A DNA stretch of 62,213 bases, the filler included, from an uncultured bacterium (GTDB taxonomy: Bacteria; Hinthialibacterota; Hinthialibacteria; Hinthialibacterales; Hinthialibacteraceae), in NCBI GenBank assembly GCA_964449065.1. It is 18 parts of 18 records of this genome, joined end to end, with 100 filler letters (N's around TTAATTAATTAA, not from the genome) between each part and the next. Parts side by side here need not be neighbours in the genome. Positions count along the whole stretch, not along the records: positions 21,252 to 24,667 come from CAYVAZ010000459.1; 17 more parts are not named here. One strand, written 5' to 3'. Shown here one piece after another: positions 16,719-25,146 of this stretch. Position 1 is the stretch's first letter; each line of letters begins with the position of its first letter. Both the position numbers and the translations under genes were made by a program. Under the pieces are notes generated by a model. That model saw nothing but the letters and a program-made list of their open reading frames with translations, did no database searches and was not told where the DNA came from.

Positions 16719-17063
16719 TCATACGGCTGTAGAGGATATTTTCGGATCAACCGGATCAAACTCAATGCGGATTCTCCGGTTGAGGGCGGCGGCGATTCTG
16801 CGCAGCATGTCGAGTGAATGTCCGTCATAATCAGCCGCTTCCAGTCGGGAAATGACCGACGAAGTAGTGCCCACACGTTCTGCCAGCTGCTTTTGGGTCA
16901 ATCCGGCTTCTTTGCGCAGGTCATAGATCTTGCGGGCGACATCGGCGTGTTCGCGTTCTTCTTCAAGGCTGGCAAGCCGTTCCGGCTTGCCTTTGTAGTA
17001 ACGCTGATGCAGAATTTCTAAGCCGTTATCGGTTTTTGTTTTGCGTTTCGTATTGGGTGTCAT
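16719..17063 (-). CDS. XRE-family HTH antitoxin (HigA-like)
   Basis: LRKEAGLTQKQLAERVGTTSSVISRLE; follows the toxin gene. Confidence 0.88.
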   Translation of the reverse strand: MTPNTKRKTKTDNGLEILHQRYYKGKPERLASLEEEREHADVARKIYDLRKEAGLTQKQLAERVGTTSSVISRLEAADYDGHSLDMLRRIAAALNRRIRIEFDPVDPKISSTAV

Positions 17064-17066
17064 GGT

Positions 17067-17426
17067 TTATTCCTCATAACCATACGTTTCAGGCGATAAC
17101 TCGAATCTTACTTTTCTATTGATTGCCATCTCGATTTCTTTCGGTGGAATCCTCTTTTCTTTCGTCAATCCATGCGAAACCACCACAGCCGATTGTTTAA
17201 AGAAAAAGTACAGTATCCGGTAATGAATCCGTAGATACCGAATTCGGAGTTCATAAATCCCATCGCGCAAATAATCGGCTTCAGGTCTGTGCAGGGTATG
17301 TCCCAGTTCTTCAAGCCGTTCAAGTTTGACCGTGCACTTATCCAATGCTTTCTCTGGTATCCTATCAAACCAATCCAATATCGGGACAGTCCCATCATCT
17401 TCTTGAAAAAAGATTATCTTCGGCAT
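17067..17426 (-). CDS. RelE/ParE-family toxin (HigB/Gp49-like)
   Basis: ADYLRDGIYELR...YRILYFF...SHGLTKE; toxin-first order. Confidence 0.88.
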   Translation of the reverse strand: MPKIIFFQEDDGTVPILDWFDRIPEKALDKCTVKLERLEELGHTLHRPEADYLRDGIYELRIRYLRIHYRILYFFFKQSAVVVSHGLTKEKRIPPKEIEMAINRKVRFELSPETYGYEE

Positions 17427-19546: not shown

Positions 19547-20197
19547 TTAAGGTGTACTAATTTCGAAGAGAGTTTTGATCCAATTTACAAACTCACCGGC
19601 TTGGGGACAATCCGAATCTAAATATTTCTTCAGCACCGCTTGGCCTAATGGAGCCCCCGGATCATCTTGCCATGCAAGCCATGTATGAATGACCGCTTTT
19701 GATGTGTAAGAAGGTTTAAATCTTGGGGTTTCAATCGAATTGACACATTGGTTTGCATACCCAATGAGATCGTCACCCGCCAGGACTAAAAATTGTGTAA
19801 AATCTTCCAGCATTCCCGTCTTTTCATTATCCGGCATAACCCAAATACCGATTGTAGGCGAAAAATCATTATACGGGGGAACAACCAATCCGCCCTTTTG
19901 CGGCTGATCCGGAATGGACGAGTATCCTGCATCACGAAAGGCTTTGGTGACGGATTCCCATCGGGCTGGAAGATTTTCATTGGCATCAACCATAACACCG
20001 AGTTTTGCGTTTTCTTCTCCGTGATGTTGTCGAATTAAAGCGGGGAGTCGTTTAACAAGAAGTTCATACCCACCCAAGTCTTCAATACGAAACCAACTGC
20101 TACTCTCGATACCATGTTGTTTTAAGAGTTGTGCAACAACATGCAAATCATCTCTACCTTCAACCAGTAATGTTTTGTCCGGCGGAAATTCCATCAC
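19547..20197 (-). CDS. DUF3226-like TOPRIM-type protein
   Basis: LLVEGRDD, VMVDAN, GMLEDF, KAVIHTWLAWQDDPG; 4-bp overlap with the ATPase. Confidence 0.75.
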   Translation of the reverse strand: MMEFPPDKTLLVEGRDDLHVVAQLLKQHGIESSSWFRIEDLGGYELLVKRLPALIRQHHGEENAKLGVMVDANENLPARWESVTKAFRDAGYSSIPDQPQKGGLVVPPYNDFSPTIGIWVMPDNEKTGMLEDFTQFLVLAGDDLIGYANQCVNSIETPRFKPSYTSKAVIHTWLAWQDDPGAPLGQAVLKKYLDSDCPQAGEFVNWIKTLFEISTP

Positions 20198-21151
20198 CGA
20201 ACCTCCATTTTAGCCTGCGCGATGTCTTCTAACATCTCTTTTTCAAAAACAGTCGCACAGAATTTCTGTTTCACCTTTGTTAAGCGGATAAGTTCACAAT
20301 CCACATCCTCATGCTCGGAAGACGCTTGATAAAAGGCTTCAATGCAATCCCAACTGTGCGTGGTAGCGAAGACTTGCACGTTAAGGCGCTTGGCGAGAGT
20401 AAAGATTAACTTCCAAACATCCGGCTGCACCGAGTAGTGCAAGCCGTTTTCAACTTCGTCGATGAGTAATGTCCCTTCCTTAGATTTCACAATTGCCAAA
20501 ATCATTTCAAATAATCTGTTAACACCTTCACCTAAACTGCTCATTGCTACAGGTTTATCGCCCCCTTTTAATCGAACTCTAAAATAGTAATTATCATGGA
20601 CTTTAATATCGTATACTGATGGTCTAACTTCTTCCACTTTTGGGTTTATTTCTTTCAATCCATTTTTAATGTCGTCTTCAAATGATGTTAATTCTAGTTC
20701 TTTCCAAAGTTTATACTTTTCATTATCTGCAATTTTGTCAGTATGAATAAAGTATATGTTTTCTTTTATTTCTTCTTTAAAAACAATCGTCTCACTAAAA
20801 AAGTGCTTGAGATTTATATTATTTGGTTCATAATCTGTATAACTTATCAAAATACTATCTTCTAAATCCAATCTAAAAACGTCGTTCATATGTTCTGTCT
20901 GATCATTTAAGCCTACTTTTATAGTTTTGTTTTTATCGCTTAACACAATTTTTGACAATGAGGATAATTGAAAATCATAATCGTGATATAAATGGTTTAA
21001 CATTGATTGAGTATCATTTATATCCCCAATTTTTCTAATTAACTTAGGAGAAAAATTGTTTTTGAAGAGATATATCGCTTCAAGCAATGACGATTTCCCC
21101 ACCCCATTCTCACCGGTAATCAAATTAATCTGCGCAAGCTTATCAATCACC
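20194..21151 (-). CDS. AAA_15/AAA_21 ABC-type ATPase (5' truncated)
   Basis: GENGVGKS Walker A, SLGEG signature, LLIDEVENGLH, ATTHS. Confidence 0.9.
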
Positions 21152-21251: not shown

Positions 21252-21388
21252 CGCAACGAAGAGACTGTCGTTGTTATCCCCCCTTATTAAGGGGGGGGTA
21301 GGGGGGATCGAAGCACGCTTTCAACAACGCAAAATCCCACGCAAAATCCCCCGGAGCCTACGGCTCCACCCCCTTATGTAAGGGGGTT
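21252..21388 (+). repeat. Repeat/MITE family E (CCCCCCTTATTAAGGGGGG hairpins)
   Basis: Matches 41982-42075 and the reverse complement of about 45388-45490. Confidence 0.75.
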
Positions 21389-21537
21389 ATTGTACTGCAT
21401 TTCAAATTTCTCAACGTTTTCATATGGGCATTACTGCCTCCATATTTTGTTGCATTTCTTCTTATTTAGTGACTATCAAAACGGATTTAAATCTCGCAAC
21501 AATACCTACCGTATAAAATTTTGCGTACCGTCAGATA

Positions 21538-22560
21538 CTAATTGACGGACGGGACGTTAAACTGCGTTTCGCTGAGTTTTCCGGGCACTTGCCCGTTGTT
21601 GGAAAACCCGCCCTGCCGCCCGGCATTGCTTTGCGGATTTCTGTTGCCGCCCAAATTGGTCATGTTGCCGGCGGGGATATCGGTTGTGGTCATTAACGTT
21701 TCGCCGTTATCCATTGTCATGGTGATTTTAATGACTTGGGGCGGCCCTTTTTCGCGCACGATAATATCGGTGAGCGCGTTAAACGTAGGGCTTTGGACCG
21801 AGGTTTTGTATTCCCGCACGATTTCTTTGGAATCCCAATCCGTTCTAAAACTATCGGAATCGGCGTATTCGAATTTGATTTCTTTGATGTGTTCTGCCAG
21901 TAAATACGATTTGTTAATGGTGCCGTAATCGCCGATATACACATCCAAGGGCGGGGCCTCGGGATTGTTGCCGACGGGGCGGTAGCGCACATCCGTGGTG
22001 CCGGCGGAGGCGAACGTAAAGCCGTTCAACTGGGTTTGAAACTCGACCTGATACCACCACGAGGCGCGCTTGATCATTAGCAGCGATTTCACCACGGTGA
22101 GCAGCAATTGTTCTGTTTGGGGATCAACGTGAATTTTGCACACCTGCAAATCGAAAGGCGGGTTGGAGTTGAGTTGGTATACCTTGCGGGTAAAGACGAC
22201 AAAGTCTTCTTGGCCCACGAATTCAATTTTGCCGGGGTCGCGTTCTTGTACGACCGGCCCGGTCATGGCCGCAAAGGCTTGTTCGGGCGGCAGGATTTGG
22301 ATTTGGGTATCGGGCTGCCAAAAGGCGTTGCCGGATAACGCGAAACGTAGTTCATCCGCCACTTGGCGTAGGCCGATGCGGGCCGCTTGGTTGATTTCCA
22401 TCGCTTGGATGCCGTTGGTGTGCGCGACCATGGCGGTATTTAACATGCTGTAGGCGCCCACGACCACCAAGGCCATGATGGTCATGCCCAAAATTAACTC
22501 GACGAGGGTAAACGCGTTTTGGTGTTTACCGTTGTTTTTCTGTTTCATGGTATGCTTCAT
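21538..22560 (-). CDS. Minor pseudopilin (GspJ/PilW-like)
   Basis: NA|FTLVELILGMTIMALV class III signal. Confidence 0.85.
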   Translation of the reverse strand: MKHTMKQKNNGKHQNAFTLVELILGMTIMALVVVGAYSMLNTAMVAHTNGIQAMEINQAARIGLRQVADELRFALSGNAFWQPDTQIQILPPEQAFAAMTGPVVQERDPGKIEFVGQEDFVVFTRKVYQLNSNPPFDLQVCKIHVDPQTEQLLLTVVKSLLMIKRASWWYQVEFQTQLNGFTFASAGTTDVRYRPVGNNPEAPPLDVYIGDYGTINKSYLLAEHIKEIKFEYADSDSFRTDWDSKEIVREYKTSVQSPTFNALTDIIVREKGPPQVIKITMTMDNGETLMTTTDIPAGNMTNLGGNRNPQSNAGRQGGFSNNGQVPGKLSETQFNVPSVN

Positions 22561-23102
22561 CGTCTTTGCCTGCTTCCACCCCTCGACCGACTGCCGCGCA
22601 TGGTGGGTTGATAGCCGTTTACGACAAAATCGTTATAGCGGGCGGTCGGCACCATTGAGATCAGTTTGAATCCTTCCGGGTTGCGGCGGTTGTACCAGTT
22701 GGAACGGAGTTGCTGTTCTTTTTGTACCCACACGGCGATCAGGTAGGCATCGTGGTCTTTGCTGTAATCGACTTTTGCCGTCCAGATGAAATCGCGCAGA
22801 CCGCTTTCGTCAAATTTGCCGCTGAAGGTGCCCAAATCGGCTAACGGTTTGAACGAGTACATCATTTCGTATTCGTGAATTTTGCTTTTGGCCAAAAAGA
22901 TCAGTTTGGATGTCTCGCGCGCTTTGCGGGCGGCGTTGATGGAGTTTTGAATCGAACGCAGCAATCCCGTTCCGGCCACCGCCAGGATGGTCATGGAGAG
23001 CAAGACCTCGACCAAGACGAAGGCTTTGGCCATTTGTTTGACCTGCCGCCGGTAGGCGTTTAACTCGGTTTGATTTTGTGCTGCTTGAAACACACGAAAC
23101 AT
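22557..23102 (-). CDS. Minor pseudopilin (GspI-like)
   Basis: KA|FVLVEVLLSMTILAV; start may be downstream at MAKAF. Confidence 0.8.
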   Translation of the reverse strand: MFRVFQAAQNQTELNAYRRQVKQMAKAFVLVEVLLSMTILAVAGTGLLRSIQNSINAARKARETSKLIFLAKSKIHEYEMMYSFKPLADLGTFSGKFDESGLRDFIWTAKVDYSKDHDAYLIAVWVQKEQQLRSNWYNRRNPEGFKLISMVPTARYNDFVVNGYQPTMRGSRSRGGSRQRR

Positions 23103-23111
23103 GGTTTTGAC

Positions 23112-24107
23112 CTACAATAAGTTTGGATCGTCGTAATAGCCCCGATAAAAATCCGAGCCTTGTTTTTCGGTTCTGCCTTCCATCATTTGAACATTGCCGG
23201 TTGCGGGGTTGATCTTCACGAAAATCCGCATTTCCTTATCGCGGTCTTCCGCCAACCGCAAGAGCGTGAAAAAGGCGGCATCGGCTGACCCGTCGGGGTA
23301 AAAGGTGAACGATTCCTCTCCGCGTTTGACTTCATCGTCGGTGCTGACTTTGTAGACAAACTCGAAGATGAATCCTTCGGGCAATTTTCCTTCAATTTCT
23401 TTGACAAACTCGGTTCGGTCGCGTCTGGTACTGCGCCCGCGTGAGGTGCTGCTGCGGCGGCCGCGGCGGGTGGAGTAGACCCGTTTTTCTTCGACCTGCT
23501 CGACGGGCACCCAGAAGCGGTTTTCGCTGACATCCACAAAAAACGAGATCGGGTAGCGCTCCATCACCGCGCGCTGCTGGGCGTAACGCAACGCGCTGAC
23601 AAAATGCGCCGAGGCCTGCTGCATCTCCGACTTGGACCACAGCGAATTGAAGCTGGGGATTCCCAGGGCGGTGATGACCGCGAGGATCATCACCGCCAGG
23701 GAGATTTCAATTAGTGTAAAGGCGCGTTTCTCCTTCTCCCCTTGGGAGAGGGCTGGGGTGAGGGAGCAGTAGATTTCATCAACAATATCATCTAATTTTG
23801 AAAAGATATCATTATTCCAATAACGAATAACTTTAATCCCCTGCGATTCAAAATATTCTGTCCGTTCCCGGTCATGCTTTACAATATCTTCTTCTATGTG
23901 TTGACCGCCATCCAATTCAATCACCAATTTTGCATCGTGACAGTAAAAATCCGCAATGTAATTACCAATTGGATGTTGTCTTCTAAACTTCATTCCTGCA
24001 ATCTTTGAACCTCGTAATTTACTCCACAATAGTTTTTCCGCCTCGGTTTGATTCTTCCGAAGGTCTCTACAATTTTGTTTTATGATTGTGGTTAGAGGCT
24101 TCTTCAT
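23112..24107 (-). CDS. DUF559 (Vsr-like) endonuclease fused to a GspH/FimT-like pseudopilin
   Basis: N-terminal LRKNQTEAEKLLW..FRRQHPIG..ADF..IELDGGQH..VIRYWN, then REP-encoded SLTPALSQGEKE, then RA|FTLIE and FYPDG. Confidence 0.88.
   Translation of the reverse strand: MKKPLTTIIKQNCRDLRKNQTEAEKLLWSKLRGSKIAGMKFRRQHPIGNYIADFYCHDAKLVIELDGGQHIEEDIVKHDRERTEYFESQGIKVIRYWNNDIFSKLDDIVDEIYCSLTPALSQGEKEKRAFTLIEISLAVMILAVITALGIPSFNSLWSKSEMQQASAHFVSALRYAQQRAVMERYPISFFVDVSENRFWVPVEQVEEKRVYSTRRGRRSSTSRGRSTRRDRTEFVKEIEGKLPEGFIFEFVYKVSTDDEVKRGEESFTFYPDGSADAAFFTLLRLAEDRDKEMRIFVKINPATGNVQMMEGRTEKQGSDFYRGYYDDPNLL
23730..23765 (-). repeat. CCCTCACCC...CCCTCTCCC-type REP, translated in frame
   Basis: Inverted relative to the copy at 24123-24157; encodes SLTPALSQGEKE. 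Confidence 0.85.
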
Positions 24108-24157
24108 GGTTTATCCGCGCTTCCCCTCACCCTAACCCTCTCCCAGGGGGAGAGGGG
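24095..24157. repeat. 55-nt REP+start-codon module, copy 1
   Basis: 24095-24149 is identical to 24613-24667. Confidence 0.92.
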
Positions 24158-24175
24158 ATGGATGTTGAGATTCTT

Positions 24176-24625
24176 TTAGTCCTTCTTTTCATGTTTCACT
24201 TCTAGTGTTCTATCGTCTTCGGTTCCGAAAGTTGAATCGAGACCGCTATATTTCAAGATATACAAGAGGTCTTCCGAACCAACATATTTATATTGGTATT
24301 CGAGTTCTTCGGTTTTTAAATTCAATAAAAAACTTTTTCTAAGCAGCCGCGGGCCATTCCAACCTTCGATTTTATCTTGCAAGAAGATCTCAAGACCTTC
24401 TTCGTTTGTCGGATATCGTCCAAAGGTTTTATGAAACTGATTCAATTCCAATTTAATCAACGAAAATCCTGAATCGGCCATCATTTTGTTTGCGTTTTTC
24501 ACCTGTTGACGAATCTCTTCCCGCTTCGATTCAATAATAATTTCTGTATAAAAGCCGCAACCATTCATTATAATTATTGTTATGAAGCAAAGACTATGTG
24601 ATAAAAAGAACTGAGGCTTCTTCAT
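24176..24625 (-). CDS. GspG-like domain protein lacking a prepilin signal, possible lipoprotein
   Basis: FGRYPTNEEGL, WNGP, SGLDSTFGTEDD; lipobox-like MNG|C. Confidence 0.7.
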   Translation of the reverse strand: MKKPQFFLSHSLCFITIIIMNGCGFYTEIIIESKREEIRQQVKNANKMMADSGFSLIKLELNQFHKTFGRYPTNEEGLEIFLQDKIEGWNGPRLLRKSFLLNLKTEELEYQYKYVGSEDLLYILKYSGLDSTFGTEDDRTLEVKHEKKD

Positions 24626-24667
24626 GGTTTATCCGCGCTTCCCCTCACCCTAACCCTCTCCCAGGGG
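24613..24667. repeat. 55-nt REP+start-codon module, copy 2 (runs into contig end)
   Basis: Identical to 24095-24149. Confidence 0.92.
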
Positions 24668-24767: not shown

Positions 24768-25146
24768 AACTGATGTTACGCAATCAATGATTGACTATTG
24801 CTTGAAAATGGTTTTTTTATAAGCCAACTATTCTAGAGTATGTTCCAAAAGTATGTTCGTTTTGGGGAGCATCGGCTTCCAGCCGGTGCGTGATAAAATG
24901 ATTTGTAATCTGAACGTATTTTTGGCAATCACTATAAGCTAAGCGCAATGTCTATCGTCTTCTCCCTTTGGGAGAAGATAAGAGATGAGGGTGATGAGAG
25001 CGATTGCTCCCCATGACGCAATGGCGTAATTAGAGGTGTATTCCTCCCGAACCCTCACCCCGTCCCTCTCCCGGTGGGCGAGGGCGATAGATTCAGCGAA
25101 CGATGAGAAAAACGGGCATATCATAATGTAGTGCGTAACATGAGAT
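24768..25146 (+). mobile_element. MITE family D with nested insertion
   Basis: TIR AACTGATGTTACGCA/TGCGTAACATGAG; homologous copies at 35241-35511 (reverse) and 38723-38921. Confidence 0.82.
24834..24936. mobile_element. About 100-bp MITE nested in family D at a TA
   Basis: Absent from the 35241 copy; TA at both ends; imperfect 25-bp TIR (18/25 by eye); internal GCATCGGCTTCCAGCCGGTGC REP. Confidence 0.75.

Follow-up and report, generated by a model that had tools for sequence, protein, structure and literature searches.

A DUF559 nuclease between BoxC-type triplex repeats is fused in frame to a GspH-type pseudopilin in an uncultured Hinthialibacterota bacterium

Intrastrand triplex motifs of the BoxC/PIT/TMECO type were already known in the 1990s, and no enzyme is known to spread them; triplex formation was shown in vitro, not in vivo (Holder et al. 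2015, PMC4666352). That paper detected no mobility genes in the vicinity of the motifs; its main text contains neither ycjD nor 'endonuclease', and its supplementary tables of neighbouring genes may list ycjD. The locus analysed here, from an uncultured bacterium of the family Hinthialibacteraceae (phylum Hinthialibacterota; assembly GCA_964449065.1), shares with these repeats the consensus, the multicopy occurrence and the arrangement in inverted pairs, but its two motifs bracket the gene of a DUF559 nuclease, and one of them is translated within a single open reading frame (ORF) that continues into a GspH-type pseudopilin. It lies in the window, a stretch of 62,213 nucleotides in which short contigs are joined by N spacers, on the short, low-depth contig C459 (positions 21252-24667) of a bin of 5.2 Mb and 515 contigs.

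Other described systems resemble the locus in part. In REPtrons, a RAYT enzyme gene lies between inverted structured repeats, the GTAG repetitive extragenic palindromes (REPs), which also occur dispersed (PMC3733652); the enzyme here has a predicted Vsr-like fold instead of HUH/Y1, and no GTAG or CGTC tag is visible. The fold appears related to that of Vsr-like or EDxHD homing endonucleases (PMC2677866, PMC3239194), but the domain starts at residue 1-9, has neither a separate N-terminal DNA-binding domain nor an intron, and is flanked by triplex repeats. As with inteins, the host protein would be restored after translation if the fusion is cleaved, and some DUF559 relatives in the phylum lie in intein-like frames; the focal ORF, however, contains no Hint domain, and removal would use a host protease and need a terminal, discarded position. 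Intragenic REPs and Rickettsia palindromic elements, both cited in PMC3733652, are repeats read in frame within a gene, whereas here a whole nuclease domain accompanies the repeat. The pilin part has in common with the minor (pseudo)pilins GspH, EpsH and FimU the A|F motif, E+5, the hydrophobic helix, the position between gspG and gspI and the fold matches, and differs from them in its leader, a folded nuclease of 129 residues in place of 6-26 hydrophilic ones. The focal cassette is REPtron-like in layout and intein-like in outcome, and it is a member of neither group.

The fused ORF encodes 331 residues (Table 1). Pfam places DUF559 on residues 9-116 (E 3e-38; 130 bits versus a cut-off of 20.6), and the weak matches that follow are to N_methyl (residues 127-148) and GspH (168-294), the latter scoring under its cut-off. 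The best NCBIfam match of pilin type is TIGR01708 (GspH; E 1.2e-8, below its cut-off), and TIGR02532 reaches 21 bits against a cut-off of 16.3, with the pilin part beginning at residue 128. The two parts differ in composition, with 35.9% GC in the nuclease part versus 54.7% in the pilin part and 0.33 versus 0.70 GC at third codon positions. The flanking inverted repeats, 33 nt each and 359 nt apart, are 88% complementary; the downstream one is translated into S-LTPALSQGEK-E, and 11 nt separate its end from F130. A preliminary description of this DNA had seen an AT-richer DUF559 domain between two inverted REPs, the second read in frame into KRA|F of a GspH-like pseudopilin within an H-I-J type cluster. 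The anatomy holds, with coordinates correct to within 1-2 nt, as do the in-frame linker and the cluster; the repeats are BoxC/triplex motifs and not RAYT-type REPs.

The DUF559-GspH fusion is real. Logan contigs from two of three microbial-mat metagenome runs span the junction with 0 mismatches and 0 gaps (23599-24159 in X1 record 6; 23298-24159 in X2 record 16); both runs come from one study and one of them may be the source sample, and the third run (X3) did not cover the locus. A chimera or assembly error at the repeat might be suspected in a low-depth contig of so fragmented a bin, with runs from a single study. This explanation is largely refuted and very improbable, since two contigs cross the junction without difference, the 33-nt repeat has unique flanks, and the metagenomic protein P0121 matches the fusion end to end at 73% identity. 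Each 33-mer that crosses the junction is unique in the assembly. In run X1, a contig that joins 23762 to 24123 carries two inverted motifs 21 nt apart, like a non-coding doublet of the cassette ends; it is probably from another organism. An AlphaFold model of the fusion (mean predicted local distance difference test score 68, from a 10-row alignment) has two domains and a low-confidence linker at residues 122-130. The top Foldseek rows for this two-domain model are the DUF559 protein 3hrl, FimU, EpsH, I-Bth0305I and GspH, none of which reaches E 0.001.

The nuclease domain belongs to the DUF559/YcjD family (PF04480). In an alignment of 28 rows, the focal protein itself included, all 11 columns are invariant, and the DUF559 structure 3hrl is matched by sequence at E 4e-26. 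The matches to I-Bth0305I are weak (profile E 6e-4; Foldseek E 0.03, target template modelling score 0.72), and nuclease activity is predicted here from similarity of fold. Profile matches to unrelated oligomeric B-subunit chains in the PDB (E 0.004-0.7) were weak and were treated as chance. The genome holds this single DUF559. No Hint or intein family matched the focal ORF at E 0.01, nor was there a Y1 match.

Both repeats correspond to the BoxC/PIT/TMECO motif, CCCTCNCCC N3-6 GGGNGAGGG N3 GGGNGAGGG. The upstream copy is exact to the consensus; in the downstream copy a single mismatch replaces the consensus Arg by Lys. The genome contains 75 exact copies, compared with none of the reversed control. 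When folded as duplexes, the repeats did no better than shuffled sequences (z -0.3 to -1.6), with a tool that treats duplex pairing only. A RAYT-type REP identity was rejected because there is no GTAG or CGTC tag at the repeat end (judged by eye) and no HUH/Y1 enzyme between the repeats; a RAYT/Y1 mobiliser was rejected as well, the three Y1 matches of the genome having no such repeat within 700 nt. In E. coli K-12, the DUF559 gene ycjD is followed about 170 nt downstream by TMECO no. 9.

The pilin part of the gene lacks a start of its own. No ATG, GTG or TTG occurs between codon 65, inside the nuclease, and F130, whereas 118 of the 120 prepilin motifs of the genome have a standard start 2-18 codons upstream; the two exceptions are the focal gene and one motif without a start in a 15-codon open stretch. 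GspH is therefore probably made only as the fusion. Separate translation of GspH from a non-standard internal start, by re-initiation or by frameshifting, would make the long frame incidental, and this had been named earlier as an outcome that would undo the interpretation. An ATC at codon 112, an AAGGAG at the repeat end and a short ATG-initiated ORF of 22 codons in the +1 frame over the linker (found by eye) could serve it, and the longer linkers of two related fusions, P0121 and P0002, could hide starts. We regard this as unlikely: a standard start codon is missing after the AAGGAG, the +1 ORF terminates within the first codons of the pilin, the frame is kept in three linkers of unequal length, and nearly all other prepilin motifs have a conventional start close by.

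The cleavage site has the features of a class III signal peptide, KRA|FTLIEISLAVMILAVITALGIP, with Ala-1, a hydrophobic tract and E+5. Ala occupies position -1 in 51 of the 120 prepilin motifs, most of which belong to near-identical FTLIELLIVVAIIGILAAIAVP paralogues on many contigs, and the one prepilin peptidase found, PilD on contig C293, has both A24 domains. Leaders are described as variable in length, ending in Gly or Ala and cut on the cytoplasmic side (PMC10191384); those of S. sanguinis have 8-18 residues (PMC6497953), and a review gives 6-26 residues, with Gly-1 critical and many of the peptidases promiscuous (PMC4471445). The focal leader, at 129 residues, is outside this range. From the motif and the peptidase gene, cleavage by PilD after Ala129 is predicted and is likely.

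The surroundings are those of a conserved cluster. gspE-F-G lie on contig C401 and gspH-I-J on C459; the genes that begin with gspK are on C147, whose overlap with C459 is 42 nt. The gspI- and gspJ-like genes 3' of gspH are syntenic with those of relatives, and gspE-F-G and the genes from gspK onward are intact and syntenic. A full-length GspH orthologue with 52-60% identity is found in 18 of 19 genomes of the family, the 19th having a partial match. Orthologues of the pilin carry, among other names, the source label 'Candidatus Hinthialibacter sp.', which indicates the OLB16/Hinthialibacterota group. All columns that are invariant across 10 orthologues are kept in the focal mature pilin.

Taken together, we propose that a DUF559 gene boxed by triplex repeats has replaced the start and leader of gspH, and that the predicted cut after Ala129 likely leaves a normal pseudopilin and a free cytoplasmic nuclease; we put the probability of this account at about 0.62. 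The cassette would have inserted between gspG and gspH, within a single sub-clade. Because it has no stop before the downstream repeat, and the repeat is open in frame, read-through across the repeat into gspH would follow, and trimming of the linker in frame would have removed the gspH start in the focal lineage. Translation would begin at the ATG of the cassette, the first hydrophobic helix would insert in the membrane with the nuclease left in the cytoplasm, and prepilin peptidase would then cut, leaving the mature pseudopilin in the membrane and the nuclease free. Such a fusion may persist because the leader is discarded anyway. The preliminary description had spoken of an intein-like insertion without splicing; the host motif and the peptidase gene are intact, but fusions to cytoplasmic enzymes, described below, make the release a local circumstance.

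The fusion could also be tolerated debris, with normal gspH translation knocked out, a product poorly inserted or uncut, and a GspH that the cell can do without or that a paralogue stands in for. The leader is five times as long as the longest in the review, with an Ala where Gly-1 is called critical (PMC4471445), and neither processing of a folded leader of 129 residues nor a folded domain as a natural leader was reported in the literature searched. The genome also has further pilin clusters, with a distant GspH paralogue, so the focal GspH may not be needed. These points weigh against our proposal. Debris would also fit the position of two short proteins, P0004 and P0122, as sister to the fused P0121 in the pilin tree, which suggests that the fusion was lost or bypassed in close kin. 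Debris is nevertheless a rather unlikely explanation: the mature pilin keeps its invariant columns and has an end branch of 0.11, which is not long, the fusion has been kept over 18-24% pilin divergence, the rest of the cluster is intact, and GspH-K are described as essential for the type II secretion system (PMC4471445).

The same DUF559-linker-GspH layout recurs in two metagenomic proteins, P0121 (343 aa; placed inside the 90% cluster of the short P0004) and P0002 (354 aa). The linkers from repeat to F+1 measure 14, 23 and 37 residues across the three fusions, all in frame, and that of the focal protein equals the P0121 linker minus 9 residues. In a tree of 37 mature pilins, from which P0019 was excluded because its motif is absent, the three fusions fall into one 6-row clade (100/99) together with P0003, which has a 52-residue leader with remnants resembling the repeat-coded peptide, and with P0004 and P0122. 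The nucleases of the focal ORF and P0121 are sisters (100/95 with 87 rows, 100/97 with 37 rows) and share 67% identity, against 82% for the pilins. Their differences affect 3 of 41 conserved positions as compared with 35 of 73 others, conservation being scored from 226 homologues that were found with the focal protein. On these alignments both the pilin and the nuclease look conserved.

The history is less clear for P0002, and here too some results count against the proposed account. Its nuclease lies outside the focal-P0121 group, monophyly of the three fused nucleases was seen in 0 of 200 bootstrap trees under LG+G4 and in 34% under a mixture model, and a single origin of the fusion, as opposed to two, was not rejected (approximately unbiased test, p 0.27). 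In P0002, Asn replaces the D79 that is otherwise invariant. Protein databases show in-frame alleles only, which is an ascertainment bias; P0002, P0121, P0003 and P0004 were compared as proteins, and the longer linkers may hold starts of their own. Selection on the nuclease may predate the insertion.

The signs of purifying selection between the focal protein and P0121 could instead point to domestication by the host, in which pilin processing would act as a switch and the nuclease would stay tethered to the membrane until released by PilD, for defence or for pilus-linked DNA handling. The change in the downstream repeat fits this, since it breaks the consensus and is conservative in the protein. 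We consider domestication improbable, because only 3 of 37 pilin rows are fused, close kin are without the fusion, the invariant Asp is lost in P0002, the same cassette occurs in unrelated hosts, and the selection could stem from the mobile life of the cassette.

Alleles without the cassette were found in relatives. DUF559 precedes gspH at none of 26 relative loci (L003-L028), where a gspG-type end lies 23-250 nt upstream of F+1, and nine more orthologue clusters (26 members, 107-248 aa) contain none long enough to be fused. Neither the top 150 of 25,983 representative hits nor the top 120 in a set of 523 contained a further DUF559-prepilin fusion. In another genus, L037 (5298-5750) and L003 (genome G010) show a second gspG-like gene and a lone triplex motif 128 nt before the F+1 of gspH, and motifs or an extra gspG-type end occur near gspH in L006 and L027; the interval may be a hot spot.

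The focal fusion is a special case of a widespread and apparently unpublished nuclease-repeat cassette. The search of the phylum gave a match in 20 of 35 genomes, and flanks of about 250-300 nt were scanned with a generic triplex scanner around 18 full-length DUF559 loci (E. coli and 17 near-full-length hits for which a locus was given, with partial hits and one hit lacking a locus set aside). The motif was present in a flank at 15 of the 18 and on both sides at 9, versus 2 of 27 gspH loci. The repeat-DUF559-repeat unit recurs at unrelated loci. In four other genomes the downstream repeat stands at the identical offset (-5) from the domain end, and one of these cassettes is in frame within a DNA methylase. 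Peptides coded by the repeat, recognized with hand-written patterns, flank 98 of 228 DUF559 homologues but 13 of 291 control windows. One of the three loci without the motif has weak matches to intein families and one is decayed. The third, which has no Pfam match, ends in an intein-like motif. In L081 (409-1998, minus strand) and L072 (2-886, plus strand), DUF559 lies in intein-like frames without flanking triplex motifs; these frames would link the family to intein-borne Vsr-like endonucleases.

In the same 228 homologues, a set biased in length, DUF559 is N-terminal to at least 100 residues in 56 cases, internal in 27, C-terminal in 23 and near-solitary in 122. Pfam analysis of 55 of the 83 N-terminal or internal fusions identified RimM, HisF, PrmC, Sua5, Mur ligase, EPSP synthase, IGPS, a tRNA synthetase and HupE/UreJ, as well as many restriction-modification enzymes; a second prepilin was not among them. 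Fusion to other proteins, which had been suggested as a check, is thus common. It also tells against release as the mechanism of the element: the cassette is in frame in many cytoplasmic enzymes that offer no route of cleavage, and the cleavable leader is one tolerated site and not its general strategy. In P0073, P0115 and P0118, DUF559 and a repeat-coded linker precede an apparent signal peptide of HupE/UreJ proteins; these may be another example of insertion at an N-terminus that is discarded.

Whether DUF559 itself spreads the repeats is the least certain step. The domain may cut at or near the triplex repeats and so mobilise the cassette, a tentative suggestion to which we give somewhat less than even weight; the fixed geometry, foreign composition, patchy distribution and co-occurrence at genome level speak for it. 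At least 10 exact motifs were found in 10 of 13 genomes with DUF559 (E <1e-20) versus 5 of 22 without (Fisher p 0.004, the genomes being kin and not independent), an association that had been proposed for testing. On the other side, those 5 of 22 genomes carry their repeats without a full-length DUF559, and one of them, a relative that is 96% complete, has 462 motifs and no full-length DUF559 that could be found. The motifs abundant in the focal genome are, besides, borne by a transposable element of the miniature inverted-repeat type (MITE), with a single DUF559 present.

This MITE is about 270 bp long and has its own terminal repeats, C(T/A)(G/C)ATGTTACGC, with 7-bp target duplications at 3 of 7 complete copies. 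Such duplications are presumably the work of an ordinary DDE transposase. A MITE end is no more than 400 nt away from 37 of the 75 exact motifs, and another 30 are close to the end of a contig. The claim that the repeat family also occurs inside this element (termed MITE D) was correct in that the element carries the triplex motif, but it is a distinct variant with 6-7 differences in 33 positions. The idea that the cassette ends are MITE copies was rejected on the same count, as the nearest cassette ends of other genera differ by 1-3. About 170 terminal-repeat matches were counted genome-wide; one copy lies at about 24770-25143 (plus strand) and another starts right after gspG on C401.

No description of a repeat-DUF559-repeat cassette or of a DUF559-GspH fusion was found in the literature searched, most subscription papers being outside its reach. 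A broader idea, which we regard as doubtful at present, is that DUF559 is the missing mobiliser of BoxC/PIT repeats and travels in minimal selfish cassettes that are translated within host proteins; at discarded N-termini (prepilin leaders and possibly HupE/UreJ signal peptides), the translation start and leader peptidase of the host would provide an exit without splicing, and active nuclease would be released at each maturation. The fixed offset of the repeat from a conserved Vsr-fold nuclease permits a direct biochemical test for a repeat-spreading enzyme. If prepilin peptidase removes a folded domain of 129 residues, selfish genes have a safe harbour in class III leaders, intein splicing can be replaced by a host protease, and such pilins will escape annotation tools that look for short leaders. 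The fusion, with its predicted cleavage, is probably one means by which selfish DNA is tolerated without splicing.

Table 1. Features of the locus on contig C459; positions are those of the window
Feature	Positions	Strand	Basis
Fused ORF, 331 aa: DUF559, linker and GspH-type pseudopilin	23112..24107	-	ORF call, profile matches, junction bridged
DUF559 (YcjD / Vsr-like) nuclease domain, residues 1-115	23763..24107	-	profile; invariant residues E24, D53, E64, D66, G67, H70, D79, R82, R95, N98
Upstream BoxC/triplex motif	24124..24156	+	reverse complement is the exact TMECO consensus
Downstream BoxC/triplex motif, inverted to the upstream one, in the linker frame	23732..23764	-	one mismatch to consensus
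14-aa linker LTPALSQGEKEKRA with Ala-1 at its end; prepilin peptidase predicted to cut between 23721 and 23720	23721..23762	-	
Mature GspH-type minor pseudopilin, 202 aa, F+1 and E+5	23112..23720	-	
gspI-like minor pseudopilin	22557..23102	-	profile, synteny
gspJ-like minor pseudopilin	21538..22560	-	profile, synteny
AT-rich GspG-like ORF upstream of the cassette, possible passenger	24176..24625	-	
55-nt block (part of upstream repeat and DUF559 translation start), copy 1 of exact direct repeat	24095..24149	.	
55-nt block, copy 2, at contig end, giving the start of the GspG-like ORF	24613..24667	.	

Upstream of the cassette, the GspG-like ORF has 34% identity to the host gspG and found no homologue in a search of 5.8 billion sequences. 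It shares the exact 55-nt start block with the nuclease gene, as if a passenger had been added through duplication of the left end of the cassette; its join to the cassette is bridged by none of the listed run contigs. A scan for promoters and terminators returned fewer sites than in shuffled sequences. Between gspJ and gspK, a repeat contains a second triplex-like motif (21275-21310) with a C-run, a hairpin and G-runs, which has more than 100 BLAST matches in the genome. Nearby contigs of the window, unrelated to the locus, carry a Gp49-like (DUF891) and helix-turn-helix pair at 16719-17426 (minus strand), likely a toxin-antitoxin module, and an AAA ATPase and DUF3226 pair at 19547-21150 (minus strand).
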